IMG/VR virus record: IMGVR_UViG_3300048793_000046 | Source of the DNA: a virus | Taxonomy: Duplodnaviria; Heunggongvirae; Uroviricota; Caudoviricetes | Length of the DNA: 64,000 bases | Reading direction: 5' to 3' (one strand) | Shown: in pieces, positions 3,210-25,000 of the stretch | Numbering within the stretch: position 1 is the stretch's first letter | Layout of the letters: each line of letters begins with the position of its first letter | The notes under the pieces: model-generated | Told to the model about the DNA's origin: nothing | Databases searched by the model: none | The model's input: the letters and a program-made list of their open reading frames with translations, nothing else | Translations under genes and position numbers: made by a program

Positions 3210-3443
3210 GTGGTCTTGAACCGATCATCCGCCCGTTCGTGGGCGAGCAAGTAGGTCCTCAACCCTTCCATCCGGGCAACAGCGCGAGTGCGCCGCCGGT
3301 TCGGCTTTCTATCGGCCTCGTCGGCGGATCGAAGACGTTCTCGTTTAGCTCAAGCACGACGCTGTCTTCGTACATGGCTGCCGTTCACACGGAGAAGCCT
3401 TCGGACGCATTCGACATGACGACCGGAAAGCTGGCGCAATAAG

Positions 3444-5186
3444 ATGGCCTTCACCCGCAGAACGCACGTAGTCAGGATTTACGACAACGATACCGGCGAC
3501 AAGGGCGGCGACTTCGTCGATGTCGAAGTTCTCGATGCTATCGCCTTTCGCAAAGAGAACGGGCAGGAAGTCATCCTGAATATGGTGCCCGCCAACTCGT
3601 CGCCGCATATCGTGGACGAGACGGGCGGCGGACACGGAAAGCAGCCGGGCAAGCCTACGCAGCTAACTCACATGCAGCGGGTAGTCGGCAAGAAAAGCAG
3701 CAACAAGCTGGACATCGAAGTCGTGGATGCCATGGCGTTTCGCGATCAGAACGGCGAAGAATGGATTTTGAACGCCAAGGACGTAAGCGCCGACCCCAGT
3801 GTATTCGACACGACGACCGGAAGTGGCGCGGGCAAGGCAACGCGCAGAACGCACAAAGAGAAAATATCGGTCGGCTTCGTCAAGAATGCTTCGGAGTATC
3901 TGACTGTCGAACGGTGCGATGCTATCTCATTCAGGACGACGAACGGAAAAGAGGTTATTTTTTCGTGCCCCTCCAGCGATGATCCCAATGGGTCGGACCC
4001 GCGCGCCGGGACGTTCATCTCGTCGCCAACTGGATACGACCCCACAAACCCAACCGGCCCGGAGCCCCCGAAGAATACGGACGCGCACAACTACGTCTCA
4101 TTCGTCGCGGGAGCAGATGGTTTCCTGACTGACGACGCGCGCATCGCGCAAGGGCCATTTTGGTGGATCAGAAACGTGACCGCTGGGGATATCCTCTTCG
4201 TTGAAGTTTCGTATTTCGCATCTAACCCCACGAGCATGCTGGATAACGACCCAACAGTTCAATTGCTCAATCCGTATGGACCTCGCGTGTGGGATGTCCT
4301 AAACAAGGTCGATCAACTGTTGCCCGGTATCGGCAATCCCCCGCCGATTAAAAATCCGGTCACCGATGCAATGCTGAGTAGCTATTATCAGTGGACCCCG
4401 GTCCCTAAAGTCGAGACGCACTCCGATCTTTCCACTAGTCCGGATGTGGTGTACTATCTTTTACGCCCCGGAGCTAATATCCCCTTCCCCATCACGTCTT
4501 TGAACTATCTGGACCAAATTGTCGTAGGTCATCAAGCTTTTACCGGCAACCCGATATTCGCAACCTTGGTTGACTTCGCGGGAGGCGTATTCGACAGTCT
4601 ACTCGTGGACAATGGACCGGGAAGTCTGTACGACATCGCCATAAAAAACGGGTTCGATATCAACAGAATTTACAAGGGCATAAATCTGTGGTCTTCGAAA
4701 GAGGCTGCCGACTACGCTCAAAACGCTTACGCGGTGATCAACAATATTTTCAACGCGAATAACACGAGCGCTGGCACCATTCCTTTCGTCACTCCCTTCC
4801 AGACAGTAGTTACGCTTCCGCTTTCGTCGAGCAGTCAAGCGAGCACTAGAGCGGGAACTGCGATATTCGAGATGAACATTTCGCAGGTTAAGGCAGCGGT
4901 CTTGGCGGCTACCCCGGCCAGACCGGGAGCGACTTCGGTTGATCTGTTCAAGATTGCAGTGACATTGAACTCTCCATCGGGCAGCGTTTCCGTGACGGCG
5001 AAAGCGTATAAGAAATTACGGAATTTCACGCTCGACAAAAACAATGCCCCAACTTTCACGCCGTGGGACCCGCCGGAGACAGCCGGGGCGTGGGGTAAGC
5101 AAGGTTCGGGTAGCACAACGTTCAATGCCACGATCACCGCGAGCCTCAACCTGAAAACATTGGATATCACTTTCGCCATCGCCTAA
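3444..5186 (+). CDS. structural protein (580 aa) with three N-terminal ~60-aa repeats (TRRTH..D..AF/SFR..NG.E.I)
   Basis: internal repeats visible in translation; position in the structural arm. Confidence 0.5.
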   Translation: MAFTRRTHVVRIYDNDTGDKGGDFVDVEVLDAIAFRKENGQEVILNMVPANSSPHIVDETGGGHGKQPGKPTQLTHMQRVVGKKSSNKLDIEVVDAMAFRDQNGEEWILNAKDVSADPSVFDTTTGSGAGKATRRTHKEKISVGFVKNASEYLTVERCDAISFRTTNGKEVIFSCPSSDDPNGSDPRAGTFISSPTGYDPTNPTGPEPPKNTDAHNYVSFVAGADGFLTDDARIAQGPFWWIRNVTAGDILFVEVSYFASNPTSMLDNDPTVQLLNPYGPRVWDVLNKVDQLLPGIGNPPPIKNPVTDAMLSSYYQWTPVPKVETHSDLSTSPDVVYYLLRPGANIPFPITSLNYLDQIVVGHQAFTGNPIFATLVDFAGGVFDSLLVDNGPGSLYDIAIKNGFDINRIYKGINLWSSKEAADYAQNAYAVINNIFNANNTSAGTIPFVTPFQTVVTLPLSSSSQASTRAGTAIFEMNISQVKAAVLAATPARPGATSVDLFKIAVTLNSPSGSVSVTAKAYKKLRNFTLDKNNAPTFTPWDPPETAGAWGKQGSGSTTFNATITASLNLKTLDITFAIA

Positions 5187-5247: not shown

Positions 5248-6096
5248 ATGGTCGCCAGTCTCACATACCGCACGAGTGACGGAACGCGCTGGGGTGGCGG
5301 CCTCGGGTCCGATCTCTCTGCTACGCAAGTCGATCTCAACTTCTGGACACTGTTCTCTGCGGTGCAGGGGCTTCAAAGTATTACGCTAGGCGCTGGCATC
5401 GACTTCATCAATCAGCCCGCCGCAGGCAACCTGTTCTTCATCCACTTGACCGATCATCGCGTACTCGGGCCGTTCGTTATTCCGACCGCGCAGTGGACCC
5501 CGCGCGGCCAGTGGTTGCCGAACACAGTATATGCGACTTACGATGTCGTCTCGATCAACGGCTCACTCTACCTCATCACTATCCCGCATACGAGCGGCGC
5601 GACGTTCTCTGCATTCGCGACGGATGGCAGCGGACATCTTCTCTACAATCTATTGCTGCAACAGCCTGCAAACGAACTCCCGACTGGCGGCACTCTCGGA
5701 CAGCGGCTCATCAAGGCTAGCGGTAGCGATTTTGTCACGGCGTGGCAATCCGATTTTATCCGACTGGCCATTTTTGTAGCGGGCTTTCCTAATCCCAGTG
5801 AAACTCTGCTCCAGTATACAGTCGTGGACGATATGTTCCTGCCTGCGGGACTGACCGGCTCGGTCTTCTTTCAGAATACGCCAACTTCTAGCACCGTCAC
5901 CTATTCTATCTTCAAGAACGGCTCTGCCGTTGGCGTCGTCAATTTCAATGGTCCGTCGCCAGAGACCATCACCGTGACGTTTTCGGCGCAAGTCAACTTC
6001 GTCCCGGGAGATGTCATCACACTCACGGCTCCGGCGGTACCGGATGCCGCACAATCAGACATCTCATTCACGTTCCTCGCCACTCTGACGCGCTAA
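5248..6096 (+). CDS. hypothetical structural protein (282 aa)
   Basis: ORF preceded by TTGACG-16nt-TTAATG promoter-like element at 5192-5219. Confidence 0.45.
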   Translation: MVASLTYRTSDGTRWGGGLGSDLSATQVDLNFWTLFSAVQGLQSITLGAGIDFINQPAAGNLFFIHLTDHRVLGPFVIPTAQWTPRGQWLPNTVYATYDVVSINGSLYLITIPHTSGATFSAFATDGSGHLLYNLLLQQPANELPTGGTLGQRLIKASGSDFVTAWQSDFIRLAIFVAGFPNPSETLLQYTVVDDMFLPAGLTGSVFFQNTPTSSTVTYSIFKNGSAVGVVNFNGPSPETITVTFSAQVNFVPGDVITLTAPAVPDAAQSDISFTFLATLTR

Positions 6097-6105: not shown

Positions 6106-8109
6106 ATGGGCTACCATAATCAACTCGTCAACTATCTGTCGTCCGCGAAGTACGGCGCTGTCACCGCGTGGGCGACCGCAGCGGCAAAGACGGTCGGCCA
6201 GATCGTGCGCCAGACCGCGCCAACGTCGGGCAACGAGCGGCTATGGCTTTGCTACGTCGCGGGCACCACGCACGCAACCACGGAGCCGACGTGGACAACT
6301 TCGCGCGGCGACAAGATCGCGACAGATGGCACTGTCTCGTGGATCGAAGTGACGGGTCTTCCCGCTGTCAACGCCGATAGCGCGAACACGCCTAACTGGA
6401 CGAACGGCGCTAAGAGCCAGTTCAACAATCAGGGTCACCTCATCAAAGACGTGGCTGGCACGCACTATTTTATCTGTACGACCAACGGGACCGGGGGCTC
6501 TGGCGCGGAGCCGACATGGAACACCGCCGCTCTCGGTAACACGACTGTCGATAACGGCGCGACGTGGACCTACATCGGTCTTGTCTCGTCATTCTCTACG
6601 CACTGGGGCGCACCTCACGCGACCATCACTCTCGCCACCAATAACAACTGGATGGAAAACGCGGGAGCGGGTCAAGCGCGTCGAACAATTTTTCTTGGTC
6701 ACGATCACGCGGAGAGCCGTTCGAGCAACTTTATCGGTCTCAATACTGCCAACTACACCAACAATCTGAATAACGGCAACTCGCTGGATATAGTTTGCGT
6801 GAGCACGGCGGGCAGCGTCCCTCCAGTCTCCGCCGACCTGTCCACGGCGGGCGCGATCACCACGACCGGCTCAAACGGTATCGCCATTGCTGGCGGCACC
6901 TACCGATGGGTCTACGGCATCACCTTCACGGCGGGCACCTCAGCGAACATCTCGATTGATTTTTCAGGCGAAAACAGCGACCGCTTCTTTGAGAATTGCG
7001 TGTTTGCTCTCGGGGCCGGTACCGGCTCGGGCGCGAACATGAACTTCAACGGCAGTTGCGGACGCCAGCACTTCAAAGGCTGCACGTTCACGTTCTCGAA
7101 TACCGGCCATAACTTCGGCGGCGGTCGCGTCAATTGCGAGTTCGACAACTGCACCTTCAACGGCAGTTCGCCAACGGTCAATGGTTTGTTCCTCGGCTCC
7201 GCTGGCGGATATGCGATCTTCCGCAATTGCGATTTCAGTGCGTGGACAAATGCGATCTTCCACTCGGGCACCAGCAACGTCAACTCGACCTTCATCTTCC
7301 GCGACTGCAAGATGCCGACAGGTTGGACGCCCGGCGACAATTTCGCCAACGGCGTAACCAACACTTCCGAAACTCTCATCTTCTCCCGCTGCAACACGGC
7401 GGGCGTCGCCAATCAGTGGCAGTTCTGGCAGAACGATGGCGCGGGCAACAACATACAGGCCGACAATCTTACTGCTCGTGTAGGCGGCTTGGCAGACGCG
7501 GGAACGCCGGTCTCGTGGAGGGTCACAACCAAAACCAACGTCACGATGAACTCGTCAGATGCAAGGCCACCGATGCTTGCGGAGTGGAACCCCGTGACTG
7601 GGGCCAACGTAACGGCGACCATCTTCGGTGTCATCAACGCCGCCGCGCTGCCGACCAACGACTACTGCTTCTTTGATATCGATTATCTCGGCAACTCGGA
7701 TACCCTCGGCGTTCGCAAGTCCTCGCGCATCGCCGACTATCTCGCGACGCCCGCCGCTGTTACAGCGGACACGTCGGACTGGACCACCGGAGCGGTCGCG
7801 GCTCGGCAGAACACGCATACCTATGCAGTCGGCGACGCGATCAAACTCGCGAGCAACGCGGGCCGCATTTTCTTCTGCACGGCCTCTTCGGGCAACACGG
7901 CGGGCAGCGAGCCCGGCGGCTACGCCTCTGCGGTTGACGGTGGCTCTGTCACGGACGGCTCCGCCACTTTCTGCGCGGGCATGAGGTTCAAGATGGCTGT
8001 CACACTGACGAGCCCGCAACCGCAACTGGCGGGCAACGTCTATGCTCAGATCAGGTTCGGTGCGCCCTCTGTCATAATCTATTTCGACCCGTCCTTGATC
8101 CTGACCTGA
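6106..8109 (+). CDS. tailspike/tail-fibre protein with right-handed parallel beta-helix (pectate-lyase-like) repeats
   Basis: repeated FxNCxF / NCTFNGS / FRNCDF / FRDCKM coils typical of beta-helix depolymerase folds; Gly/Thr/Asn-rich. Confidence 0.55.
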   Translation: MGYHNQLVNYLSSAKYGAVTAWATAAAKTVGQIVRQTAPTSGNERLWLCYVAGTTHATTEPTWTTSRGDKIATDGTVSWIEVTGLPAVNADSANTPNWTNGAKSQFNNQGHLIKDVAGTHYFICTTNGTGGSGAEPTWNTAALGNTTVDNGATWTYIGLVSSFSTHWGAPHATITLATNNNWMENAGAGQARRTIFLGHDHAESRSSNFIGLNTANYTNNLNNGNSLDIVCVSTAGSVPPVSADLSTAGAITTTGSNGIAIAGGTYRWVYGITFTAGTSANISIDFSGENSDRFFENCVFALGAGTGSGANMNFNGSCGRQHFKGCTFTFSNTGHNFGGGRVNCEFDNCTFNGSSPTVNGLFLGSAGGYAIFRNCDFSAWTNAIFHSGTSNVNSTFIFRDCKMPTGWTPGDNFANGVTNTSETLIFSRCNTAGVANQWQFWQNDGAGNNIQADNLTARVGGLADAGTPVSWRVTTKTNVTMNSSDARPPMLAEWNPVTGANVTATIFGVINAAALPTNDYCFFDIDYLGNSDTLGVRKSSRIADYLATPAAVTADTSDWTTGAVAARQNTHTYAVGDAIKLASNAGRIFFCTASSGNTAGSEPGGYASAVDGGSVTDGSATFCAGMRFKMAVTLTSPQPQLAGNVYAQIRFGAPSVIIYFDPSLILT

Positions 8110-8119
8110 GCATCGCCTG

Positions 8120-8674
8120 ATGGCTAACAACAAGTCCACGCTGATCACGGGGGGACTTATGTCCCCGTATTCTACCGTCCTCCTTTCGGATGACGGTACG
8201 AAGCGTGTGACTATAGTTGATGGCGTCGCGATCAATCAAGTCTCTGGCGGCGGAGTGTGGGCATCTACCGAAGCGCCCGATGTGATGGCCCTCATCGGCT
8301 ACCCGGGTTTCCCCGGCACGTTCGGCGATCTCGCCTCTACTGAGAGCGCGGACATCTTCGCGGCGGCAGGCTATCCGAACATCATCGGATTTTTAGTCGC
8401 GAGTGAAGCCCCGGATATCTTCTCAGCGTTCGGACGGCAACCGCTCTCTGGCGCTCTTGCGGCGACTGAGAGCCCGGATATTTTCGCTGCGACCGGCACC
8501 GGGCAGGGCGTGAACGGCACTTGGGTTTCAACGGAGGGGGTTGACACGTTAACCATGATAGGGAATACTCCCATCGCCGGTACGTGGGCATCCACCGAAG
8601 CCGCTGATCGATTTTCTGCAATTGGCGCTGGCGTCACTCGGGTTCGCCGTCGTCGCACTTTCTTCGCAACCTGA
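8120..8674 (+). CDS. repeat protein with six tandem ~21-aa units (wASTEaPDiFaAxG)
   Basis: repeats STEAPDVMALIGYPG / STESADIFAAAGYPN / ASEAPDIFSAFG / ATESPDIFAATG / STEGVDTLTMIGN / STEAADRFSAIGAG. Confidence 0.45.
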   Translation: MANNKSTLITGGLMSPYSTVLLSDDGTKRVTIVDGVAINQVSGGGVWASTEAPDVMALIGYPGFPGTFGDLASTESADIFAAAGYPNIIGFLVASEAPDIFSAFGRQPLSGALAATESPDIFAATGTGQGVNGTWVSTEGVDTLTMIGNTPIAGTWASTEAADRFSAIGAGVTRVRRRRTFFAT

Positions 8675-8687: not shown

Positions 8688-9065
8688 ATGGGCGTCGTCT
8701 ACAATACCACGCTAAAAAACACGCGGATGACCAGCGTCGTCACCGCTATCGGCACTGCCGGGTTTCTCAACATCTACACCGCCGGTCTTGCCCTGTTGCT
8801 CGCAACTGTTCCGCTGCCCAACCCGGCGGGCACCGTCACGGGCGGCGTTCTGACTTTCTCGGGCATGCCACTGACCGAGGCGTCGGCGAATGCATCCGGT
8901 ACAGCGGCGGCGGCGACCGTCTCGACCGCTACCGGCGGCACCGGCACCGTGGTCGTCTCGGGCTTGACTGTGTCGTCCACTTCGGGTGACATCGTGCTGT
9001 CTTCGACGAACATCGTCGCGGGTCAGCCGTTCACGATCACCTCGGGCTCGATCACGCACGGCTAA
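8688..9065 (+). CDS. Ala/Thr/Gly-rich fibre-like protein (125 aa)
   Basis: start moved to the ATG at 8688, which has an AGGAGG RBS at 8676-8681; upstream ORF ends 8674. Confidence 0.4.
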   Translation: MGVVYNTTLKNTRMTSVVTAIGTAGFLNIYTAGLALLLATVPLPNPAGTVTGGVLTFSGMPLTEASANASGTAAAATVSTATGGTGTVVVSGLTVSSTSGDIVLSSTNIVAGQPFTITSGSITHG

Positions 9066-10033
9066 TGAAGCCCCCTCTTCATATCCAAGGCATGCATGGG
9101 ATAGGAGACTGCCTGCATCAGCGGGCGGTTCTTCGACAACTGATGCAGACGCGTGACGTGTCGCTGGAGACATCATGGCCAGCGATGTATCACGATCTCA
9201 TCGCGGACGGGCTGCGCGTTGTACGCCGTCCCGTGGCGCTGCGGACCCAGACCAAGAATGCCGTCCGCGAAAGCGAGGCGGCTAAATTTGTTTCACGTCA
9301 TCCGTTCGCGCGGGCGGGGATGCGTATTGCATATGGCGGGGGACAGGTGTTACAAGTCCCGAGCAAAACAGTTCTTGAGGTGATGTGCAATGTTACCGGA
9401 ACGAATTACGCGGAGGCGGACTATCGGCTTCCTGTCCCTGATGTATGGCAGACCGATCTCTTCAAGACCTTGGGAGCACTTCCGATGCGTTCCCGAGCTA
9501 AGCCGTGGATGGTCTACCGGCCCCTCGTCGCTCGACCTGAGTGGCGTGGCAGCATGGCACGCAATGCTGACCCGGAAGCTTACGCCGAACTCTTCAACTC
9601 CATCCGAGACGAGTTCTTCGTCGTCTCGGTCGCTGACCTTGTCGAAGGACAGGAATGGATCGTCGGCCCTGACGCTAAGGCGGACCTGAGTTTTCACCGG
9701 GGCGAGCTTGTATTCGAAACTCTAGCTGCTCTTTTCCAGCAAGCCGATCTCGTGTTCACCTCCAGCGGCTTCCCGGCGATCCTCGGTCCGGCGGTCGGCA
9801 CGCCCACAATTTCAATCGTCGGCGGCTATGAGGACTATCGCTGTCATGACAGCGGGGCGAAGTTCGCCCCCTACCTCGCAATCGGCCCGAGGGTCGGCTG
9901 TTCGTGCTGGACATCGGCCTGTCGCCAAGTGTGTGATAAGCAGATAGATATCGTCGCGGCGAAGGAGAGCATTCGTCAGTTCGTGTCCCCAATCTGTATA
10001 CAAAATCAGGACAGCCCATGCCCGGCTTCGTGA
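9065..10033 (+). CDS. glycosyltransferase family 9-like (heptosyltransferase-like)
   Basis: N-terminal GIGDCLHQRAVLRQL resembles the GT9 SLGDVxxTxPALRAL motif; sits beside gmd and fcl. Confidence 0.45.
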   Translation: MKPPLHIQGMHGIGDCLHQRAVLRQLMQTRDVSLETSWPAMYHDLIADGLRVVRRPVALRTQTKNAVRESEAAKFVSRHPFARAGMRIAYGGGQVLQVPSKTVLEVMCNVTGTNYAEADYRLPVPDVWQTDLFKTLGALPMRSRAKPWMVYRPLVARPEWRGSMARNADPEAYAELFNSIRDEFFVVSVADLVEGQEWIVGPDAKADLSFHRGELVFETLAALFQQADLVFTSSGFPAILGPAVGTPTISIVGGYEDYRCHDSGAKFAPYLAIGPRVGCSCWTSACRQVCDKQIDIVAAKESIRQFVSPICIQNQDSPCPAS

Positions 10034-10656
10034 TGATGCGTCCGCCGCAAGCACCGCTTCGAATGATCGCGCCGACTACTCAGGATGTCGCCGTCGTCAT
10101 GGGCGGAGGCGGCGACCCGTTCGCGGAGTGGGAACTCGCGAAAGAACTTTGCGGGCGCGCAGGCAAACATGCTAGTGTTTTTGCCGGGAATGACATGATA
10201 GAGATGTTTCCGGGAGATATCGATCACGCCGTCTCACTTCACCCCGACAAGCTCAGAATTTGGCTGCCACGCCGAAAGGCCGCAGGCTTCAACGACCCGC
10301 CGAAGGTTTGGGCTCATCGGAATTACGAGGGCGCGGTCACACACTGGACACGGGATTGGTCGGGCTCTACCGGACTGTTTTGCGTCAAGATCGCGCGAGA
10401 GAATGGTTTCGTTCACATCATCCTGTGCGGTGTGCCCATGACATTCGAAGGCGGACACTTTCTTCGGAAACAGCCGTGGGCCGCTTCGACCGGCTTCCGA
10501 CGCGGATGGGAGGGCCGCACACTTGAGCTTCAACCCTATCTCCGAAGCATGGGCGGATGGACGCAAGAAGAGTTTGGAGCGCCGACCGAGGACTGGCTCC
10601 GCACCGATATCGAAGACAGACATCGAAACCTTTACACCGTGGGATTAAAAGCATGA
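10018..10656 (+). CDS. hypothetical protein (212 aa) in the glycan cassette
   Basis: ORF in an operon-like arrangement. Confidence 0.4.
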   Translation: MPGFVMMRPPQAPLRMIAPTTQDVAVVMGGGGDPFAEWELAKELCGRAGKHASVFAGNDMIEMFPGDIDHAVSLHPDKLRIWLPRRKAAGFNDPPKVWAHRNYEGAVTHWTRDWSGSTGLFCVKIARENGFVHIILCGVPMTFEGGHFLRKQPWAASTGFRRGWEGRTLELQPYLRSMGGWTQEEFGAPTEDWLRTDIEDRHRNLYTVGLKA

Positions 10657-10976
10657 TGAAACCTTTCAAGATATTCGGTATCGCGCCGACGCGCGAAAAG
10701 TTTCCGTGGGTGATCTTCTTTCTGCTTACGGTGCTGTTCCTGATCGGCGTCTCCCGGCACGCACATAGCGAAGAAGACATCTGGGCCTGCTACGCCTCGC
10801 AGCGCTATCAAGCCATGTCCTCGGGTTGGCCCGCGTGCAACGAGATGAGCTATCTGTGCTCGCGCGTTCAACAGTACCTCCAGTCTCATACTATTGAAGA
10901 GGGCCGCGCCGAAGGTGAAAAACTTCACATCCCGCAGTGGCTCCGTGCGAAAGCCGAAAGGTGCATCCCCAAATGA
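10653..10976 (+). CDS. small membrane protein (107 aa, one transmembrane segment)
   Basis: start chosen at MMKPFKIF; hydrophobic stretch [14 protein letters not shown]. Confidence 0.35.
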
Positions 10977-11980
10977 ACAGAGCGCTGATCACCGGGATCA
11001 CCGGACAGGACGGAAGCTACCTCGCGGAGCTTCTGCTCGACAAAGGATACGAGGTGCACGGTATCAAGCGCCGTGCTTCTTCGTTCAACACTTCGCGCAT
11101 CGACCACCTTCCGGCTCTAAAACTTCACTATGGGGATATGACTGATGGTTCTAATCTTGCTCGTATTATTCAAGAAGTTCGCCCGAGTGAGATATACAAT
11201 CTCGCTGCTCAGTCTCATGTGCAAGTCAGCTTCGAAACGCCCGAATACACCGCTAACGCGGATGGGCTCGGCGCTATGCGCCTTCTTGAAGCGGTGCGGG
11301 CAGTAGGTCCCGGCTACTGCACGCGCTTCTATCAGGCGTCCACGTCGGAACTATACGGCAACTCGGGCGGTTATCTTCGGAACGAAAACACCCCGTTCAT
11401 GCCGCGCAGCCCATACGCCGCTGCGAAGCTCTATGCGTTCTGGATTACGGTGAACTACCGCGAAGCCTATGGCGTCCACGCGAGCAACGGCATTCTGTTC
11501 AACCACGAGAGCCCGCGACGCGGCCCGACGTTCGTCACGCGCAAGATCACCAAGGCGGTTGCCGCGATCTCAACCGGCGCGCTGGACTGTCTTCGCCTCG
11601 GCAATCTCGACGCGATGCGCGACTGGGGCCACGCCCGGGACTATGTCGAAGCGATGTGGCTGACACTCCAGCAAGACGAGCCGGATGACTACGTGATCGC
11701 GACCGGCGAGGCGCATTCCGTCCGTGAGTTTGTCGAGCTTGCGTTCGCCGAAGTCGGTATGGACATCGGATGGACTGGCGAAGGCGTCAACGAGCTAGGT
11801 ATTGATCATGTCAGCGGCCAGCCCGTGATCCGCATCGATCCCCATTATTTTCGCCCAACCGAAGTTGACCTCTTGCGCGGCGACGCGACAAAGGCTATGA
11901 CGAAACTCGGCTGGCGGCCCAAGATCGGCTTCCGCGCGCTCGTCAAGGAAATGGTTGCGGCGGATTTGGAGGATTGTTGA
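10973..11980 (+). CDS. gmd: GDP-mannose 4,6-dehydratase
   Basis: [34 protein letters not shown] plus full-length similarity to the GMD short-chain dehydrogenase fold; start set at the internal ATG 10973. Confidence 0.85.
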
Positions 11981-12789
11981 TGCTTAACCCGGACACACGC
12001 GTCGCCGTCTGTTGCTATTCGGGTGACGGTCATCAAGTCGTCGAAGCGCTGGAGTTCTACTTGCACCATGAGTGCCCGCTCACAGTTCTCTCGCCCGCAG
12101 ACAGCAAGGTCGATGTCAACTATCCGGGCGTGACGAATGTCTTCGCCGGGAAGGCTGCCTACATCGGGCCGGACAGTTTTGACCGGGAAATGCTCCATCT
12201 CGCGGCGCTGTTGCAGTATCCCGAAAACCACTTCCTGATCCATGACGCCGACAGCATCATGCTCGATCCAAAAATCCCGGACTATCTGTACGCCGAGCCC
12301 GATATGGTTTGGTCGAACCAAGTCACCGACGCCATCCCTGAGCATCAGTCGTTCTTTCCCGAGGGCTGGCCGCACGTCGCTTTTCAGCCGCCGTACTTCC
12401 TGAGCCGCAGGACCATCGAAGCGATGCTCGCGGTCAAGGACGATCCCCGCGTCATAAGGGATCATCCGTGCATGCCGTTCATCGATTTCTACATGGTGCA
12501 GTTGACCATCGTCGCCGGGCTGCCGTGGCGGCGACTGATGGATTGCATTTCGTGTCCGATCTCGATAGACCTTCGCAAGGTCAACCCTCCCGAAGCTGAT
12601 CTCGTCACGTATGACATGGGAATGAAGATAGCGTCCAATGCTGTCCTCCGCGAGGGCACAAGCGTCCTTCACTCGGTCAAGAACTCGGTCGCTATCCGCA
12701 CGCTTGCGGGGTTGCGTCAACAATATCTCGCCAATCACCCGGATGCTCAGCCAAAGTTCTTCCCAGCCCCCACAATCGGAAGAGGCTAA
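11974..12789 (+). CDS. hypothetical protein, possible glycosyltransferase-like (IHDADSIML DxD-like motif)
   Basis: lies between gmd and fcl; DAD motif. Confidence 0.4.
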
Positions 12790-13661
12790 TGCTCGATCTG
12801 TCCCGTGTCACGCTTCTCTTCGTTGAAACCCGAGCCCACGCGATCACCAAGCGCGTGATCGATGACTGTCTGGCCAAGGCCGACTTCGGAGACGTGCTGA
12901 TCTATTCTGACAAGCCAGACCTAATCCCGATCTCCGGGGCGCGGCATATCCTCGTTCCAGACTTCCCGGACAAACGGGAGGCCGGACGCTTCTATTATTC
13001 AGAGGCGATGGCCAAGGTCGAAACCGATTTCGCTCTGATGCTGGAATGGGACGGCGGCATATATGACCCGTCGAAATGGAAGCCCGAGTTCTTTGACTAC
13101 GATTACATCGGAGCGCCGTGGCGGGTCCGCGACCAATACGACGTGGGTAACGGCGGCTTCACGTTGATGTCAAAGAAACTGGGGCACTTCATCTGCGAGA
13201 ATGCGGAGAAATATCCCGTCTGCACTGACATCGATATCTGCCGAGCCCAGCGCGAGAATTACGAGGCCGCCGGGTTCAAATGGCCTACGGCGTTGCTCGC
13301 ATCTTGCTTCTCGTGGGAGCTTGGGCTACGCAATCCAGAGCACTTCGGCTTTCACGGCGCGTTCACGTGGCCCGAAGTGCTGCCCAAGGAAGAGCTTGTT
13401 ATCCGCACCGGGCTACTGACCGAGACATCGTACCTGATGGCGAAGATGTATTACCTCGTTCGCGCGGCCCCTGAAATTTTGAAAGACTTGACACCAGAGC
13501 AGGCCGAACGCTATGTCTCGATTTACGGCGAACCGCAACCGCGCATCCCGGGCCACATCGCAGGCCGCTATATGTCTCCGCAACAGCGCGCGGCAATGAT
13601 GCTTGTTCAGGCGCAGCGACAGGGGCTCATCTCTCATCAACAAAAAGGGCTCAAAGCATGA
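12789..13661 (+). CDS. hypothetical protein in the glycan cassette (290 aa)
   Basis: translationally coupled with neighbouring genes. Confidence 0.4.
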   Translation: MLDLSRVTLLFVETRAHAITKRVIDDCLAKADFGDVLIYSDKPDLIPISGARHILVPDFPDKREAGRFYYSEAMAKVETDFALMLEWDGGIYDPSKWKPEFFDYDYIGAPWRVRDQYDVGNGGFTLMSKKLGHFICENAEKYPVCTDIDICRAQRENYEAAGFKWPTALLASCFSWELGLRNPEHFGFHGAFTWPEVLPKEELVIRTGLLTETSYLMAKMYYLVRAAPEILKDLTPEQAERYVSIYGEPQPRIPGHIAGRYMSPQQRAAMMLVQAQRQGLISHQQKGLKA

Positions 13662-14614
13662 AACGAAATAGCCCCATCCTCGTGACCGGCGCGAACGGGC
13701 TCGCCGGGTCTGCCGTTGTCGAGCATCTCCGCGCCAACGAGTTCACGTGCGTCATTCCAATCACCCGGGACGATGTTGATCAAGTTGATCTCCGTGATCA
13801 TAAGGCCGTGCACGATCTCTTCGAGCGCATCGGCGGCGACCGGGGTCCCTTCTACGTCTTCCACGCAGCAGCGACGGTCTACGGCCTCGGCGGCAACATG
13901 GCCAATCAGGGCAAGAGCATTCTCGACAACACGCTGATCAACACTGCCGTCATTGACGCTGCACAGCGTTCGGGCTGTCGCAAGATCACCGTCATGGGTA
14001 CGAACGCCGCATACCCGTGGCCGACACCGCTGCCCTTCAAAGAAGAGAACCTATACAACGGTCGCCCCGACGCGGGCGAGTTCGGCTACGGGCACGCGAA
14101 GCGTCACATGCTAGCGATGCTCGAAGCATATCAACAGAGCTACGGGCTGGAGTATTGCTACATCGTCAGCGGCAATCTCTATGGCCCGCGAGATACGTTC
14201 AACTCGAAGACCGGCCACGTACTACCGTCCCTGATCGCGAAATTCTCCGCTGCCAAAATTACCGGCGGCACTGTGGAAATCTGGGGCGACGGAACGGCTA
14301 GGCGTGACTTCCTGTACAGCAAAGACCTTGCTCGCGTCGTGCAGTTGCTCATGTCGGAAGACATCAAGCCCGGACCGATCAACATTGGTAGCGGAGAGGC
14401 GTATAGCATCCAACGTATCGTCGATTTGCTATGTACAATCTCCGGCGTCAGTGCGGACCGCGTCCGCTGGGATGCCTCTAAACCGAACGGGCGACTGGAC
14501 TGCCGCGCCGATCTCTCGCGTCTTGGGGCACTCGGCTTCTCGCCGAATTACTCAATTGAACAGGGCCTACAGGAGACGTGGGATTGGTTTAAGCGCGCTA
14601 CGGAGCGGGCATAA
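13658..14614 (+). CDS. fcl: GDP-L-fucose synthase (GDP-4-keto-6-deoxymannose 3,5-epimerase/4-reductase)
   Basis: ILVTGANGLAGSAVVEHL Rossmann N-terminus, YxxxK region, length of about 318 aa typical of Fcl/WcaG. Confidence 0.8.
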   Translation: MKRNSPILVTGANGLAGSAVVEHLRANEFTCVIPITRDDVDQVDLRDHKAVHDLFERIGGDRGPFYVFHAAATVYGLGGNMANQGKSILDNTLINTAVIDAAQRSGCRKITVMGTNAAYPWPTPLPFKEENLYNGRPDAGEFGYGHAKRHMLAMLEAYQQSYGLEYCYIVSGNLYGPRDTFNSKTGHVLPSLIAKFSAAKITGGTVEIWGDGTARRDFLYSKDLARVVQLLMSEDIKPGPINIGSGEAYSIQRIVDLLCTISGVSADRVRWDASKPNGRLDCRADLSRLGALGFSPNYSIEQGLQETWDWFKRATERA

Positions 14615-14686
14615 ACCGGGTTGACACGGGAACATGGTTAATGCTACACGTGGGCGGAAACCTATCCCCCGCGAAAGGGCACCCCC

Positions 14687-14956
14687 ATGTTCTCATTTCT
14701 CACGAACCTTGAAATCAACCTCGCGACCAACGTCGTTTGCCTAATCCTCGGCATGGTCTTCAAGACCAAGATCACGGACTTCTTCAAGGGCATCCCGGCT
14801 CAGGCTCGCGTCGCGCTCAATCAAGTCGAAGCCGATACCGCTTCCAAGCTCCGGGGCGCGCAGGCTCAGGTTATCAACTCGCTTCCCGGCGCTCCCCCGG
14901 CTCCGAAGGCTGCACTTGCGCCCGGCGCATCTCCCCCGGCTGCGCCCGCCGTTTAA
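14687..14956 (+). CDS. small membrane protein, holin candidate (89 aa)
   Basis: single transmembrane segment VVCLILGMVF; immediately upstream of the endolysin; TTGACA and TGGTTAATG elements upstream (14621-14643). Confidence 0.4.
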   Translation: MFSFLTNLEINLATNVVCLILGMVFKTKITDFFKGIPAQARVALNQVEADTASKLRGAQAQVINSLPGAPPAPKAALAPGASPPAAPAV

Positions 14957-14979
14957 TTCCGTCAACCGCTGAGCACATC

Positions 14980-15819
14980 ATGGCCCTCAACACCTACAAG
15001 CCATTCGTTGATCGCATGATCGGCAAGTACGAGGGCGGCTACGGCTGGGATAAAGCGGACACGGGCGGCCCGACGAAATACGGCATCACCTGTTTCGATC
15101 TCGCCGAGCACATGGGCCAGAAGATGGACAGCATGGCGCGCTGGGCTCCTATCGTCCGCGCGATGACACTCGAAACCGCCGAGCAAATTTATAAGACCAA
15201 ATACGCGGGTGCAATTCGCTATGACGATCTCCCCGCCGGTCCCGATGTCGAGATGATGGACTACGGCGTCAACTCCGGTATTACGCGGCCCATCCGCGTT
15301 GTGCGTGCCATCCTCGGCGTCCCCGGCAGTGCGAAGATGGATCAAGCGCTGCTCGATGCCATCAAGAAGGCGGACCCGACCAAGCTCGTCGCCGACATCA
15401 GCGCCGAGCGACTGCACTTCATGCATGCTATCCGCAACGGTTCAGCATGGAATAGTTTCGGCGGCGGCTGGGGCGCGCGTGTGGCCGATCTTAAAGCCTA
15501 CGCCAACCATCTCATCGCTGCTCCGGGCACCGTTGCCGAGCCGCAGGCTCCCGATCTCACGAAGGTCTCGATGCCCAAAGCGCAACACGGTTCTCCGAAC
15601 ACTGTCAAGAACGTCATCAAGACGACAACCGCGACCGCGACCGCTTCCGGCACCGGCAGTCACTTTTCCGGCCTGCCGCTGGAGTTGACTGCGGTCATCG
15701 TCGGGTTCGTTATTGTCGGCGGCATCGCCTACGTTCTGTACGCCAAGCAGAAGGCTGCGAACGACAACGCGACCGTCATCCTTCCGCCGGTCGTGACGCC
15801 CATCCTCAAAGCTGCATAA
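14980..15819 (+). CDS. endolysin, glycoside hydrolase family 108 (lysozyme-like) with C-terminal transmembrane anchor
   Basis: MALNTYKPFVDRMIGKYEGGYGWDKADTGGPTKYGIT is the GH108 signature N-terminus; C-terminal hydrophobic stretch AVIVGFVIVGGIAYVLY; start chosen at ATG 14980 rather than the upstream frame extension. Confidence 0.7.
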   Translation: MALNTYKPFVDRMIGKYEGGYGWDKADTGGPTKYGITCFDLAEHMGQKMDSMARWAPIVRAMTLETAEQIYKTKYAGAIRYDDLPAGPDVEMMDYGVNSGITRPIRVVRAILGVPGSAKMDQALLDAIKKADPTKLVADISAERLHFMHAIRNGSAWNSFGGGWGARVADLKAYANHLIAAPGTVAEPQAPDLTKVSMPKAQHGSPNTVKNVIKTTTATATASGTGSHFSGLPLELTAVIVGFVIVGGIAYVLYAKQKAANDNATVILPPVVTPILKAA

Positions 15820-15828
15820 GGTTTCCTC

Positions 15829-16329
15829 ATGTCCAATCTCGATCACCTCGCCGATCTCCTGCTCCCCGCGCTCATCGGCTTCACGCTGGCGGTGGCGTAC
15901 TTCTTTGGCGTGCGTCCACTGCTAAAGCAGACGCCCGGCTTCAAGCAATTGTATGCGAGCGAAGACACGATCCTCAACGCGCTCGCGGTGAAGCTCAGCG
16001 GCGTGAAGCAAAAGATCACGACCATCTTCCTGTCGGCGGCGGGCTTCATCGTGGTCGCTCACGATGAGATCACCCCGTTCATCACGCAAGTCGGCGTGGA
16101 CCCGGCACAGATTTTGCCGAAGGTGCCGACGTGGGTCTGGCCGGTCGCGTCCGTCGCGGTCCTGTGGCTCATCCAGCATTTCCGAAACCTCGCTGACGTG
16201 CAAGCCCGTGCGAACGCTGAGGCGCTGCTCAATGCCGGTCATCCGCTCGCCGCTCCAGCCCCGGGCCTCCCGCTCGATACGCTGCCGTCCCCGTCGCCCT
16301 TGGCGTCGCTCCCTGACAAGGAAGGCTGA
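15829..16329 (+). CDS. membrane protein of the lysis cassette (holin or spanin candidate)
   Basis: multiple hydrophobic segments; directly downstream of the endolysin. Confidence 0.45.
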   Translation: MSNLDHLADLLLPALIGFTLAVAYFFGVRPLLKQTPGFKQLYASEDTILNALAVKLSGVKQKITTIFLSAAGFIVVAHDEITPFITQVGVDPAQILPKVPTWVWPVASVAVLWLIQHFRNLADVQARANAEALLNAGHPLAAPAPGLPLDTLPSPSPLASLPDKEG

Positions 16330-16332
16330 TCC

Positions 16333-16797
16333 ATGGGTGCTATCGCTGCTATTTTCACTGGACTGTCAACTGTATCGTCTCTCGTCACCGGGATGTTCGG
16401 CACCATCAACGGCATCACCAAGGCGCTCGCAGATGAGAAGATCAACGCGCGCAACGCGACGACCGAGGAAGAGAAAATCCACTCTAATGAGCGGATCAGC
16501 ATGTTACAGGCCCGGCGCGACGTGCTGATCGGGGAAGCCGGGTCCGGTTCGCGTCTCAATCTGATCGTGCGATCTCTGTTCGCCTTGGGACCGCTGAGCG
16601 TTGTCCTCAAGCTCTACTTCTGGGACAAGGTGATCGGCTCACTCGTCGGCTGCTCTCAGGCTCCCGCCGGAACATGCGGGATGTTTACTACCGACCCGCT
16701 CGATGAGAATGGCTGGAAAGTCATGAGCGTCGTGCTGGGCTTCTACTTTGTTTCCGAAATCACGCTCGGCGTCACTCGAATGGTGAAGTCGAAATAA
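16333..16797 (+). CDS. membrane protein of the lysis cassette
   Basis: N-terminal transmembrane segment MGAIAAIFTGLSTVSSLV and additional hydrophobic segments. Confidence 0.45.
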   Translation: MGAIAAIFTGLSTVSSLVTGMFGTINGITKALADEKINARNATTEEEKIHSNERISMLQARRDVLIGEAGSGSRLNLIVRSLFALGPLSVVLKLYFWDKVIGSLVGCSQAPAGTCGMFTTDPLDENGWKVMSVVLGFYFVSEITLGVTRMVKSK

Positions 16798-16813
16798 GCG
16801 GGGGATTTTTCCT

Positions 16814-17515
16814 ATGGCTGGTACATCACAACTTGATCCAGAGAAAGTATCTCTGGCCAACCCGGCTGATCCGAGCCCGAACGTCTTGGATATTGTGCGG
16901 GCTGAAAGCAAATATCAAGACGGCATGCGCGAGGCTATGGGGAAGCTAAACGAGTTCTCACTCGCTGCTCAGACCCAGTTTTCTACTTTTGCCCGCGACA
17001 GTGAAAGCCGGATGCAAACGTGGATGCGTGATGCCGAGACCAAGCGGGTCGATCAGTTGACCGCGCAAAGTCAGAATTATGAAGCGCGTATCGCGAACAT
17101 GCTGGCAGACGCCGTCAAGGACAAGTCGGACCTTGTGGCAATCCAACTGTTGCAGATACAGTCGTCTTTCGGCGAGCGCGTGTCGAAGCTGGAAGAGTTT
17201 CGACTGCTCTCGACCGGGCGAGCGCAGGTTGCTGATCCTCAGATCGCAGCATCGTTCGACATGATCAACAAAAATCTCTCTACAACGCAGGACCAGTTCG
17301 CCAAAAGCTTGACCGATATTTCATCCAAGATGGAAGTGATGGCTAAAGCAATTATAGCGCTTCAAGAGACCTCCACCAAAGGCGGCGGGCGCGAGATCGG
17401 GCGGCACGAAGTGATCGCATGGGGCATCGCGGGTGCTGGTTTTATAGCGTCCATAATTTCCGTAGTCGCTCTCTTCTTTCATCTTTCGCCAATTGCCGCT
17501 CACATCGGCGGATAA
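16814..17515 (+). CDS. coiled-coil protein with C-terminal transmembrane segment (233 aa)
   Basis: heptad-rich middle; C-terminal WGIAGAGFIASIISVVALFF. Confidence 0.4.
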   Translation: MAGTSQLDPEKVSLANPADPSPNVLDIVRAESKYQDGMREAMGKLNEFSLAAQTQFSTFARDSESRMQTWMRDAETKRVDQLTAQSQNYEARIANMLADAVKDKSDLVAIQLLQIQSSFGERVSKLEEFRLLSTGRAQVADPQIAASFDMINKNLSTTQDQFAKSLTDISSKMEVMAKAIIALQETSTKGGGREIGRHEVIAWGIAGAGFIASIISVVALFFHLSPIAAHIGG

Positions 17516-18302: not shown

Positions 18303-18335
18303 AATGGCCCCGGAGAGCGATCTCCGGGGCCTTTC
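18303..18335. terminator. bidirectional Rho-independent terminator
   Basis: GGCCCCGGAGAGCGATCTCCGGGGCC hairpin flanked by T-runs on both strands, between convergent genes. Confidence 0.6.
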
Positions 18336-19669: not shown

Positions 19670-20078
19670 GATGCAGCTTGAAGAAACCGAATTTCGAAAA
19701 GTAGTCCGGCTTCTGTGTCATGAGCAGGATCATCTGCCCGTCGCGTTTTCCGATCTCGTCAATGCGCCACTCGACAAGCGCCTTGCCCGCGCCGCTACCC
19801 TGATAAGTCGGGTGCACAGCAATCCAGATCAGATTGAACGCGCCCTTCATCAGCATCGAAGGTCCGAACGCGGCGAAGCCGATTGGCGTCGGAGTGTAAT
19901 CTCGCGAGAGCGGATCACCAAGGTCCATAATCCCGAACGTCGGCGCGAAGTGCCCGCCTCGGAAATACTCGACCATCTGGAGATGACAGCGGTCGGCGGC
20001 TTCGATGCCCCAGTTCTCCAAGACAAGCCCGGAGCAGAACTCGATCTCTCTGTACTTCGGTTCGCGAATGAACATCAC
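19614..20078 (-). CDS. GNAT family N-acetyltransferase
   Basis: AVHPTYQGSGAGKALVEWRI is the acetyl-CoA binding motif A. Confidence 0.65.
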   Translation of the reverse strand: MMFIREPKYREIEFCSGLVLENWGIEAADRCHLQMVEYFRGGHFAPTFGIMDLGDPLSRDYTPTPIGFAAFGPSMLMKGAFNLIWIAVHPTYQGSGAGKALVEWRIDEIGKRDGQMILLMTQKPDYFSKFGFFKLHHVGNEWYLMLKLLKTVEM

Positions 20079-20611
20079 TTGTCCCTGTGACGATAGCGAG
20101 GAATACCCGCCGCCTCTTTGATCGCATCGGCGAACTTGTCGTTCGGACCGCGTGGGTCCTTCGGCTGTTGAAGCTGTTCGTGTCGCGTCGGTTCGAAATT
20201 GTTTCTGATCTCGTCGTCAATCCGCTCGGCAAGCAACAGCACCGAAAGCTTCGGGACGATCATGACTGTATTGGCGCTCTCAGTCATCATGAGATTGATT
20301 TTGTCCTCGCCTTCGAACAAACGGAAGTCTGTGCGATAGACGATGATGGCTTTGTCTGTGCCATAGCCGTAGCCCAGTTCCCAGCACGTGCCGCTGTCCG
20401 GGTCCGGCCCGTCGAGATTGGCAAGAACCAACTGAGCCCAGTCGATGCCTGTCTTGTCAGATTTGAAAATCAGATCAGGCCGGTCGGCGTGATGCTGGCG
20501 CTCTTGCGGAAGAAAAACTTCGTGACCATGAAGTCGAAGCGCCTCTGCGAGAGCGAGATTGAAATCGCACTCGGCTGTTGAGAACAGCGGGCCTGCCATA
20601 TAGATACGCAT
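20075..20611 (-). CDS. nucleoside 2-deoxyribosyltransferase-like protein
   Basis: MRIYMAGPLFSTAECDFNLALAEALRLHGHEVFLPQ matches the NDT/Rcl family N-terminus. Confidence 0.6.
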   Translation of the reverse strand: MRIYMAGPLFSTAECDFNLALAEALRLHGHEVFLPQERQHHADRPDLIFKSDKTGIDWAQLVLANLDGPDPDSGTCWELGYGYGTDKAIIVYRTDFRLFEGEDKINLMMTESANTVMIVPKLSVLLLAERIDDEIRNNFEPTRHEQLQQPKDPRGPNDKFADAIKEAAGIPRYRHRDK

Positions 20612-24121: not shown

Positions 24122-24274
24122 AGGGACGCGGGTGCCTCCAATGTCGGCAGTGAGCGAAACGCATAATTGACCCTAGCTCAAAGATTAGTCGCGGAGCCCG
24201 GGGTCATACAAACGCTGCGGCTCCGCGCGACATTTGAGTAAGATACGCACATCCGGCGATCTCTGTCAAGATGG

Positions 24275-24347
24275 CATGAGTGGAAGGAGTTGAACCCTCG
24301 CTGGCACGGTTTTGGAGACCGGCGTGCTACCGTAACACTTCACTCAT
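24275..24347 (-). tRNA. tRNA-Trp (anticodon CCA), CCA not encoded
   Basis: 7-bp acceptor ATGAGTG/CACTCAT, T-arm GAGGG-TTCAACT-CCTTC, anticodon loop CTCCAAA. Confidence 0.55.
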
Positions 24348-24350
24348 AAA

Positions 24351-24427
24351 TGGTACTGCCTTAGCGATTTGAACGCCATCCCATCGGTTCACAGCCGACG
24401 TGCTCATTGCCATCGAGCATAGGCAGC
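24351..24427 (-). tRNA. tRNA-His (anticodon GTG), no G-1, A73, G1:U72; CCA encoded
   Basis: acceptor GCTGCCT/AGGCAGT, canonical T-arm TTCAAAT, anticodon loop CTGTGAA. Confidence 0.55.
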
Positions 24428-24428
24428 A

Positions 24429-24499
24429 TGGTCGCGCACCACGGTTACGATCCGGGCTGACAGCCGTATGAAAGCTATTTCCTCACCAGAGGGAGCGCG
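24429..24499 (-). tRNA. tRNA-like element, anticodon unresolved
   Basis: tgg followed by 6/7 acceptor complementarity and a cacgg-ttacgat-ccggg arm; fold not resolved by hand. Confidence 0.25.
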
Positions 24500-24504
24500 T
24501 TTAT

Positions 24505-24575
24505 TGGCAGCCGCTTTCGGTGTCGAACCGAACTCTTCAAGCTTCAAAGGCTCGTCGGGTCCCGGACCAGCGGCA
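24505..24575 (-). tRNA. tRNA-Gln (anticodon TTG), short D-region
   Basis: T-arm ttcgg-tgtcgaa-ccgaa, anticodon hairpin reading codon CAA, 1:72 unpaired. Confidence 0.4.
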
Positions 24576-24583
24576 AAAATAAT

Positions 24584-24658
24584 TGGCCCTGCTTCCGGGT
24601 GCTGCCCCCGGTTTTCCCGCTTGAAAGGCGGGGCTCTTAGCTGATGGAGGAAAGCAGG
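24584..24658 (-). tRNA. tRNA-Glu (anticodon TTC) with non-canonical T-loop GGCAGCA
   Basis: perfect acceptor cctgctt/aagcagg, perfect anticodon stem cccgc/gcggg, loop reads codon GAA; CCA encoded. Confidence 0.45.
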
Positions 24659-24659
24659 T

Positions 24660-24734
24660 TGGAGCGAGCACGGGGACTTGAACCCCGACCGCAACGCTTG
24701 GAAGGCGCGCGTGCTGCATTGACACTATGCTCGC
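24660..24734 (-). tRNA. tRNA-Gly (anticodon TCC), tentative
   Basis: perfect acceptor gcgagca/tgctcgc, canonical T-arm cgggg-acttgaa-ccccg, loop reads GGA. Confidence 0.45.
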
Positions 24735-24738
24735 AGAT

Positions 24739-24827
24739 TGGCGGAAAGACGGGGACTTGAACCCCGAAGCGGCTTACACCGCCGACAGTTTAGCAAACTG
24801 TTCGTTTGACCATTCACGCATCTTTCC
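24739..24827 (-). tRNA. tRNA-Ser (anticodon GCT), type II with long variable arm
   Basis: perfect acceptor, canonical T-arm, anticodon hairpin acagt-ttagcaa-actgt, variable-arm hairpin gcgg/ccgc; 86 nt. Confidence 0.6.
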
Positions 24828-24831
24828 AAGT

Positions 24832-24909: not shown

Positions 24910-24914
24910 GAGAT

Positions 24915-24996: not shown

Positions 24997-25000
24997 CTAA

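Follow-up and report, generated by a model that had tools for sequence, protein, structure and literature searches.

What does a tailed phage do with genes for a nucleotide sugar that lie between its tail-fibre and lysis genes, and which sugar do they make? We addressed this question for positions 8688 to 14614 of a stretch of 64,000 nucleotides (hereafter the window) from IMG/VR virus record IMGVR_UViG_3300048793_000046. A preliminary description, made from the sequence alone, had read gmd and fcl in this region as a route from GDP-mannose to GDP-L-fucose, accompanied by glycosyltransferases that act either on virion proteins or on the lipopolysaccharide (LPS) of the host. Our analysis makes it very likely that the region is a phage-owned glycan-synthesis module. 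As judged from the catalytic residues, its product is most likely a GDP-6-deoxyhexose, with D-rhamnose or 6-deoxy-D-talose more likely than L-fucose. To the full reading, which includes glycosylation of virion proteins in the cytoplasm, we assign a probability of about 0.5.

The cassette comprises seven genes on the + strand: A (9065-10033), likened by profile-profile comparison to the GT9 (GT-B type) glycosyltransferases; B (10018-10656), a candidate fourth transferase with a weak likeness to MptE-like/DUF115 and Cst-type enzymes; C (10653-10976), a small single-pass membrane protein; gmd (10973-11980), for GDP-mannose 4,6-dehydratase; E (11980-12789), a GT31-like GT-A glycosyltransferase according to its predicted fold and an invariant DxD; F (12789-13661), a DUF5672 glycosyltransferase of GT-A fold; and G (13658-14614), the "fcl" gene, for a short-chain dehydrogenase/reductase (SDR) of the GDP-fucose synthase (GFS) family. 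All open reading frames (ORFs) named in the preliminary description were found on this strand where it had placed them; the start of E lies at 11974 in its ORF list and at 11980 in an independent gene call. Database relatives numbered 476 for 9065-10033, more than 1000 for 10018-10656, 243 for 11974-12789 and 484 for 12789-13661. From 8688 to 14614, successive genes overlap by 1 to 16 nt. Transmembrane prediction found a membrane segment in none of the six enzymes (A, B, Gmd, E, F and G). Furthermore, Pfam, NCBIfam and transmembrane scans detected no initiating phosphoglycosyltransferase, flippase, polymerase, ligase, acyltransferase or Gtr-type membrane protein in the cassette.

The identity of gmd, already recognized in the preliminary description, was confirmed by its equivalog score and catalytic residues. 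The protein passed the cut-off of TIGR01472 (560 bits; cut-off, 415), matched PF16363 over its full length (1.6e-146) and shows 64% identity to E. coli Gmd, with T124, E126, Y148 and K152 aligned to the catalytic Thr133, Glu135, Tyr157 and Lys161. By these measures 10973-11980 is a genuine GDP-mannose 4,6-dehydratase gene, and the Gmd step certainly yields GDP-4-keto-6-deoxy-D-mannose. The nearest cellular gmd genes share only 70-72% identity with it and come mostly from Alphaproteobacteria, the likely host group.

G is an extended SDR that is 31% identical to E. coli Fcl. Its best NCBIfam model was NF047922 (GDP-L-fucose synthase), of which it failed the cut-off (204.7 bits against 500), and its best PDB match was E. 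coli GFS (GMER; 3.7e-40), with the C. jejuni structures 7ANC and 7ANH at 8.8e-39 and 2.9e-32. The T115/Y144/K148 reduction triad and the NADPH-binding motif VTGANGLAG (GxxGxxG) are kept, and the equivalents of GFS residues His179 (His187 in G), Tyr136, Lys140 and Asn165 are all conserved. In place of the general base Cys109 of GFS, an ungapped, high-confidence alignment puts Ala117. Alanine occupies this position, in the context G-T-N-A-x-Y, in the G homologues of 15 of 16 syntenic relatives. The sole Cys-bearing G among the 16, with the motif G-S-N-C-A-Y-P, is an otherwise syntenic gene of the relative L001 (GCA_040383985.1, JAWVHF010000073.1). G-S-(S/A)-C is retained in E. coli Fcl, in the homologue from cyanophage P-SSM2 and in that of a second phage lineage.

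In human GFS, the corresponding replacement C116A abolished activity (PMC12362431). Moreover, DdahC (T/H dyad) and MlghC (Y/R dyad), two natural GFS homologues that lack the Cys, have reductase but no epimerase activity, and DdahC did not gain epimerase activity when the Cys was restored (PMC7949155). A non-exhaustive search of the cassette and of ten further small ORFs detected no separate RmlC-type cupin epimerase. Since G lacks the catalytic Cys and its Cys-less homologues are reductase-only, the product would be GDP-D-rhamnose or GDP-6-deoxy-D-talose rather than GDP-L-fucose. G is probably a C4 reductase of GDP-4-keto-6-deoxy-D-mannose that performs no 3,5-epimerization, and the proposal that gmd and fcl together make GDP-L-fucose is not supported in that form, on account of the score below the equivalog cut-off and of Ala117.

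The two enzymes downstream of gmd, to which DxD-like motifs had been ascribed, were both confidently modelled as GT-A-fold glycosyltransferases and indeed carry conserved DxD-type motifs. The predicted fold of E is Rossmann-like GT-A and closest to GT31 structures. In 53 homologues of E, D91-A-D93 is invariant and F87...H90-D91-A-D93-S94, at the end of strand 86-91, is invariant or nearly so. Neither E nor its listed homologues matched a Pfam, NCBIfam or PHROG model, the GT31 models Galactosyl_T and Fringe included. The family was seen only on phage-like metagenomic contigs: it was found in no isolated phage, and a pattern scan of 185,579 species genomes returned no member, a result that depends on the pattern used. 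We prefer to regard E as representing a GT-A family of its own, restricted to phages and without a Pfam model. F, which also has a predicted GT-A fold, matched PF18922 (DUF5672) with 39.7 bits (gathering threshold, 24.4), and the same domain was detected in all 120 listed homologues; W87-D88 (within E-W-D) and D105 do not vary. In giant viruses, DUF5672 is common. Single-sequence and profile searches of PDB sequences with E and F gave nothing significant. A paralogous relationship between the two was considered and rejected, as they share no sequence similarity.

E always adjoins the fcl-like SDR gene and usually gmd, even in lineages without A, B and F. Because of this constant linkage to sugar-nucleotide genes, E is the best candidate for the 6-deoxyhexosyl transferase. 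In a second lineage with fcl-gmd-E (L018), Pfam and PHROG scans of the neighbouring genes were uninformative.

A had been described as a GT9-like transferase, and the profile comparison supports this. A profile of 38 homologues aligned end to end with E. coli WaaC/WaaF/WaaU/WaaQ in hhalign (76.6%; E 2e-5; 272 columns), as opposed to 3.5% in a control comparison with GT4. G14-D15 of A aligns with the catalytic G12-D13 of WaaC; WaaC D261 and H266 are not conserved in the A alignment. Direct searches gave no Pfam match at E<=0.1, the Glyco_transf_9 model included; among PDB sequences, the single sequence had no significant match, and the 38-homologue profile found no GT9 chain at E<=1. A matches phrog_6804, and some of its 476 relatives are labelled heptosyltransferase by the JGI. 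Thus, we regard A, with moderate support, as a soluble GT9-like enzyme. Its donor would probably be ADP-heptose or a similar host donor, an indirect hint to which comes from the relative L017, whose cassette adds HldE-like, SIS-domain and epimerase genes.

Near its C terminus, A carries a conserved cluster of four cysteines (C279/C281/C286/C290, CxCx4Cx3C; window 9899-9934), which might form a metal finger as in TibC. Homologues of A with 33% identity are located in the head-tail module of the Pseudomonas phages D3 (orf12) and PAJU2. D3 orf12 (7748-8575 in locus L006) has CRCTMKQHNCDK at the place of the Cys cluster. In the surrounding head-tail block of D3 (L006 5951-9143), orf12 is followed by the methyltransferase gene orf13, and orf7 is annotated as a sialyltransferase gene, which suggests that virion-protein modification in D3-like phages is worth a look. 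A conserved A-B pair across phages was also considered; it was rejected, as B shows no similarity to D3 orf13, a methyltransferase.

B (10018-10656) had been listed in the preliminary description without an interpretation and can now be regarded as a candidate fourth transferase. It had no direct Pfam, PHROG or NCBIfam match, and its family has 1066 representatives in a 50%-identity library. Weak matches to PF01973, below threshold (best, 3.3e-4), were obtained for 21 of 97 homologues, no other family recurred, and a fusion protein with a B domain matched PF01973 at 9.7e-4. The only PDB match of the B profile was the Cst-I sialyltransferase (E 0.52), through the single motif SSG...CGVP. These faint likenesses weakly suggest that B is a Rossmann-type protein similar to MptE-like/DUF115 (Maf family) or Cst-type sialyltransferase-like enzymes. 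The B domain is often fused to methyltransferase domains, and in Paracoccus phage Pkon1 a B homologue directly follows the major capsid gene. C consists of 107 residues, with a hydrophobic segment at residues 15-33 and four Cys in its C-terminal part. It had no Pfam, PHROG or NCBIfam match, and it is conserved just before gmd in many relatives. As for the small membrane proteins mentioned in the preliminary description, C is the one inside the cassette, and the other (14687-14956) lies after it.

The placement of the cassette within the late, virion-related arm, between tail-fibre and lysis genes, was borne out by the flanking genes. Upstream are tail-fibre-like and virion proteins (phrog_7049, CBM_5_12 and phrog_3758). 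Two of the upstream genes, both on the + strand, are close to the cassette. The protein encoded at 8120-8674 (184 residues) contains six repeats of about 21 residues with the core [AS][ST]E..D.F.A.G, recognized by eye and with a regular expression; Pfam and PHROG searches with it gave no match. In most relatives, its homologue is encoded one or two genes upstream of the cassette. It is followed at 8688-9065 by the gene for a small virion structural protein (125 residues; 29.6% Ser+Thr; phrog_3758 "virion structural protein," 3e-8), the stop codon of which overlaps the start of A. Those relatives that possess a homologue of this protein (47-89% identity) encode it immediately before the cassette.

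On the other side, the + strand genes for a single-pass small membrane protein (14687-14956, by transmembrane prediction) and for a GH108 endolysin (about 14980-15819; PF05838, 1.4e-16; phrog_315, endolysin) mark the start of the lysis cassette, and 14687-15819 is outside the sugar module. A perfect 11-bp stem with nine G-C pairs and T-runs on both strands forms a strong bidirectional terminator-like hairpin at 18306-18331, beyond the lysis genes; no comparable site was found between 5 kb and 18 kb. The hairpin is predicted to be the end of the rightward late transcription unit and its boundary to leftward genes. From this layout we infer that the cassette would be coexpressed with the late, tail-to-lysis genes.

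Some further features of the flanks were noted. The tail-fibre-like protein encoded at 5248-6096 exceeded the CBM_5_12 cut-off (30.7 bits; cut-off, 26.2), which hints at a polysaccharide receptor. A C-terminal hydrophobic segment of the GH108 endolysin (residues 228-246) suggests a membrane-tethered lysin. The two ORFs that follow it, 15829-16329 and 16333-16797, encode membrane proteins, and a holin-like protein with three transmembrane segments is among the lysis genes; a homologue of 16333-16797 in a relative, located two genes beyond the endolysin, weakly matches GTA_holin_3TM.

The conservation of the locus was analyzed in a synteny survey of 27 IMG/VR loci and two further contigs. In about 18 relatives, genes for a tail fibre, the repeat protein and the small virion protein are followed by A, B, in some cases C, gmd, one or two copies of E, F and G, and then by those for a small membrane protein, a GH108 endolysin and holin-like proteins. 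Local shuffles were detected in some of them, with B after G or F before gmd. Because the cassette occupies the same position in about 18 contigs although its proteins are only 44-83% identical, we conclude that it is old in this phage lineage, where it has been conserved while diversifying.

Two relatives show additional genes. In L017 (IMGVR_UViG_3300037316_000027, 11391-17301), a 5-kb insert inside the cassette holds genes for another DUF5672 protein, an HldE-like CTP_transf_like+PfkB protein whose domains are in the opposite order, an SIS_2+E1_dh fusion, a transketolase-like protein and an SDR epimerase, which suggests a phage-encoded pathway for a heptose or a branched sugar. In L001, an ORF at 2487-3086, between F and G (3083-4024), has a faint match to NUMOD3 and possibly encodes a homing endonuclease.

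The window itself, which covers 64 kb of a 74.8-kb metagenomic contig, is that of a phage. ORF and tRNA scans revealed 27 tRNA genes, a family A DNA polymerase and a primase-polymerase, along with a DUF2800/PD-(D/E)XK nuclease, an SNF2 helicase, exonucleases and a Gp2.5-like single-stranded DNA-binding protein. No integrase or lysogeny genes were detected among the ORFs scanned in the window, and the phage is of the virulent, tailed type. Its G+C content is uniform, at 0.58-0.59 over the cassette and its flanks, the same as in the rest of the window. There is no close isolated phage: in megablast the cassette matched none of 50,697 phage records, and the best match of the DNA polymerase was from Roseobacter phage RDJL3 (43%). 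The lineage probably comprises uncultured siphovirus-like phages with hosts among the Alphaproteobacteria. The 27 tRNA genes form a dense array on the - strand (24272-27852) that covers most amino acids; one call (27382-27457) is odd, with a two-base "anticodon." Also on the - strand is a gene for a nucleoside 2-deoxyribosyltransferase (20075-20611; PF05014, 8.3e-20), a family also found near the cassette of a relative.

A working model can be drawn from these data. Gmd would act on host GDP-mannose to yield GDP-4-keto-6-deoxy-D-mannose, and G would reduce it at C4 without 3,5-epimerization to give a GDP-6-deoxy-D-hexose. The four soluble transferases A, B, E and F could then build a short hetero-oligosaccharide in the cytoplasm, with E transferring the 6-deoxyhexose and A using ADP-heptose or a similar host donor. 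The acceptors would be coproduced virion proteins, namely, the Ser/Thr-rich products of 8120-8674 and 8688-9065 or the tail fibres; such a role is speculation for 8120-8674, and we infer it for 8688-9065. Since the cassette lacks a flippase, a polymerase, a ligase and any enzyme for initiation on a lipid carrier and is fused to a block of virion genes, virion proteins are the most likely acceptors. In line with this are the A-type genes in the D3-like head-tail module and the B-type gene after the capsid gene of Pkon1, as well as the precedents of virion glycosylation in mycobacteriophages and giant viruses and of protein heptosylation by GT9-related enzymes.

Several points weigh against this model. 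Virion proteins are candidate acceptors in which a search by eye of the results revealed no acceptor motif, A and B are assigned from moderate and weak profile evidence, respectively, and the expression timing is deduced from the gene layout. The Ala forms of G might use another base, and the G of L001 keeps the Cys. Furthermore, soluble transferases can use lipid-linked or lipid A-core acceptors through host machinery at the inner face of the membrane, so the missing flippase and ligase genes are weak evidence. The main alternative is that the transferases act at the cytoplasmic face on lipid A-core or undecaprenyl-linked intermediates of the host and alter its LPS or polysaccharide, with the effect of blocking superinfection or of stopping progeny from adsorbing to lysed cells and debris. 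Such envelope remodelling would suit the GT9 likeness of A, as canonical GT9 enzymes are heptosyltransferases that act on the LPS core, and the presence of the conserved small membrane protein C, which the model leaves unexplained. It would also suit the occurrence of gmd- and fcl-family genes in O-antigen and capsule loci, of which they are typical (for example, the colanic acid locus of E. coli), and the similar make-up of the P-SSM2 cluster (gmd, fcl-like, GT2/GT1/GT11/GT6), cyanophage clusters of gmd, fcl and glycosyltransferase genes usually being read as LPS-related. Nevertheless, we consider it less likely than glycosylation of virion proteins: genes packed into the late region and fused to virion genes leave little time for LPS export before lysis; besides the flippase, polymerase and ligase, acyl- and initiating transferases and Gtr-type membrane proteins are missing; the E family was not found in cellular genomes by the pattern scan; and in unrelated phages, A- and B-type genes lie within head or connector modules. 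Seroconversion of lysogens, raised in the preliminary description, fits poorly with the lack of lysogeny genes among the ORFs scanned.

Glycosylation of virion proteins is also to be preferred over glycosylation of the phage DNA, in which the transferases would act on hypermodified bases as a protection against restriction. Phages are known to glycosylate their DNA, and the window has the nucleoside 2-deoxyribosyltransferase gene at 20075-20611. This explanation is rejected on context as highly improbable, since the cassette is in the late structural and lysis block, away from the replication genes, and the ORFs scanned include no base hydroxymethylase or related enzyme; GDP-6-deoxyhexose donors and GT9- or GT31-like enzymes are not known from DNA glycosyltransferase systems. 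Equally remote is the idea of a recently acquired, host-derived island (a moron) without a conserved phage role. The closest cellular relatives of gmd are mostly alphaproteobacterial and the gene content of the cassette varies among relatives, as would be expected of such an island. It is largely refuted by the uniform G+C content, the phage genes on both flanks, the same gene set at the same position in about 18 contigs at 44-83% identity, the 70-72% identity of the best cellular gmd and the lack of a cellular homologue of E in the pattern scan. The preliminary description had named a recent insertion with host-like flanks as what would speak against its proposal; synteny, G+C content and gmd identity point the other way. 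With regard to the sugar, G could be a divergent but complete GDP-L-fucose synthase, that is, a 3,5-epimerase/4-reductase serving a fucosylated glycan. Its best family and PDB matches are GDP-L-fucose synthases, the equivalents of His179, Tyr136, Lys140 and Asn165 are kept, a Cys occupies the base position in L001, and any epimerized product would need G, as no separate epimerase gene was found. We disfavour this explanation as rather improbable in view of the 204.7 bits where 500 are required, the Ala in 15 of 16 homologues, the inactivity of human C116A (PMC12362431) and the reductase-only, Cys-less homologues, of which DdahC gained no epimerase activity from an added-back Cys (PMC7949155).

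Taken together, we tentatively propose that this phage clade decorates its own tail-fibre-region proteins with a variable 6-deoxyhexose, possibly heptose, glycan. It would do so by means of largely phage-restricted transferases (the E family, DUF5672, a GT9-like enzyme with a metal finger and an MptE-like enzyme) and a GFS descendant devoid of the epimerase base. In these phages of Gram-negative hosts, the cassette would serve as a diversifying "glyco-island" through which adsorption is tuned or the virion is shielded. So far, it is mainly mycobacteriophages that have been shown to glycosylate their own particles. If our proposal is true, the phenomenon extends to a widespread environmental phage group, probably with Gram-negative hosts, and a role can be given to two uncharacterized families, DUF5672 and the Pfam-less GT-A family of E. 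Virion glycan coats bear on therapeutic phages through adsorption, stability and immune recognition. In addition, if G is reductase-only, the best-hit annotation "GDP-fucose synthase" is wrong, which is a practical warning. Since one relative keeps the Cys, the fcl-like gene is a natural experiment on the loss or gain of epimerase activity.

The preliminary description had called a sugar-nucleotide pathway in a phage uncommon. This is a fair statement: the fcl-like protein matches 185 of 50,697 phage records, and a precedent exists in cyanophage P-SSM2. The P-SSM2 cluster (PSSM2_257-268), conventionally read as LPS-related, is the closest precedent in gene content. It comprises gmd, an fcl-like gene, an epimerase gene and five glycosyltransferase genes. 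As in the cassette described here, a phage gmd is followed by a gene for a GFS-family SDR (36% identical to G), and several transferase genes lie in one co-oriented block. However, the P-SSM2 fcl-like protein keeps the catalytic Cys (GSSCIYP), and its transferases belong to GT2, GT1, GT11 and GT6, whereas those of the cassette are GT9-like, MptE-like, GT31-like and DUF5672. Moreover, the P-SSM2 cluster is located among auxiliary metabolic genes of a 252-kb T4-like genome and not in a tail-fibre/lysis interval.

The closest functional models are the virion glycosylation systems of mycobacteriophages and giant viruses. According to the summary of Freeman et al. 2023 in PMC12363180, the mycobacteriophages Che8, Corndog and Myrna glycosylate capsid and tail-tube proteins in the cytoplasm with their own soluble transferases. 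Phage-encoded soluble transferases are common to that summary and to our locus, where their genes are linked to virion genes. In contrast, the mycobacteriophage hosts are of Gram-positive type, and glycosylation is demonstrated there, while here it is deduced from the genes; the proposed likeness is one of function. Giant viruses, the group in which DUF5672 is common, are likewise reported in PMC4691112 to glycosylate their own particles (chlorovirus PBCV-1 GMD/GMER and A64R). They differ from the phage described here in being eukaryotic viruses with another genome context. The chlorovirus GMER is a complete epimerase/reductase.

For G, the nearest analogues are DdahC (7ANH) and MlghC (7ANC), GFS homologues with an altered Cys/His dyad (T/H and Y/R; A/H in G) that perform C4 reduction only (PMC7949155). 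7ANC and E. coli GFS match G about equally well, 7ANH more weakly. Unlike G, they act on GDP-heptose derivatives together with separate cupin epimerases; none was found here, and the substrate of G is presumably the hexose product of Gmd. For A, the comparison is with the bacterial autotransporter heptosyltransferases TibC and AAH. These GT9-related GT-B enzymes O-heptosylate a protein in the cytoplasm with ADP-heptose and have a four-Cys metal finger, an iron finger in TibC, near the C terminus (PMC4358343). A is likewise GT9-like with a conserved C-terminal four-Cys cluster, a likeness that serves as a lead and does not establish homology to TibC. The Cys spacing differs (CxCx4Cx3C in A; C339/C342/C358/C370 in TibC), and A is shorter (322 versus 406 residues) and has no N-terminal beta-barrel.

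Seroconverting temperate phages (P. aeruginosa D3; Gtr systems) resemble our phage in that phage genes alter surface glycans, and D3 has the A homologue orf12, which is located in the head-tail module and outside the seroconversion genes. Seroconversion relies on expression from a prophage and on membrane proteins; here, no integrase or Gtr-type proteins were found among the scanned ORFs, and the enzymes are all soluble. In comparison with all these systems, the cassette differs in its set of transferase families, in the lost epimerase base of its fcl-like enzyme and in its constant location, within a lineage of medium-sized phages, between the tail-fibre and the lysis genes.

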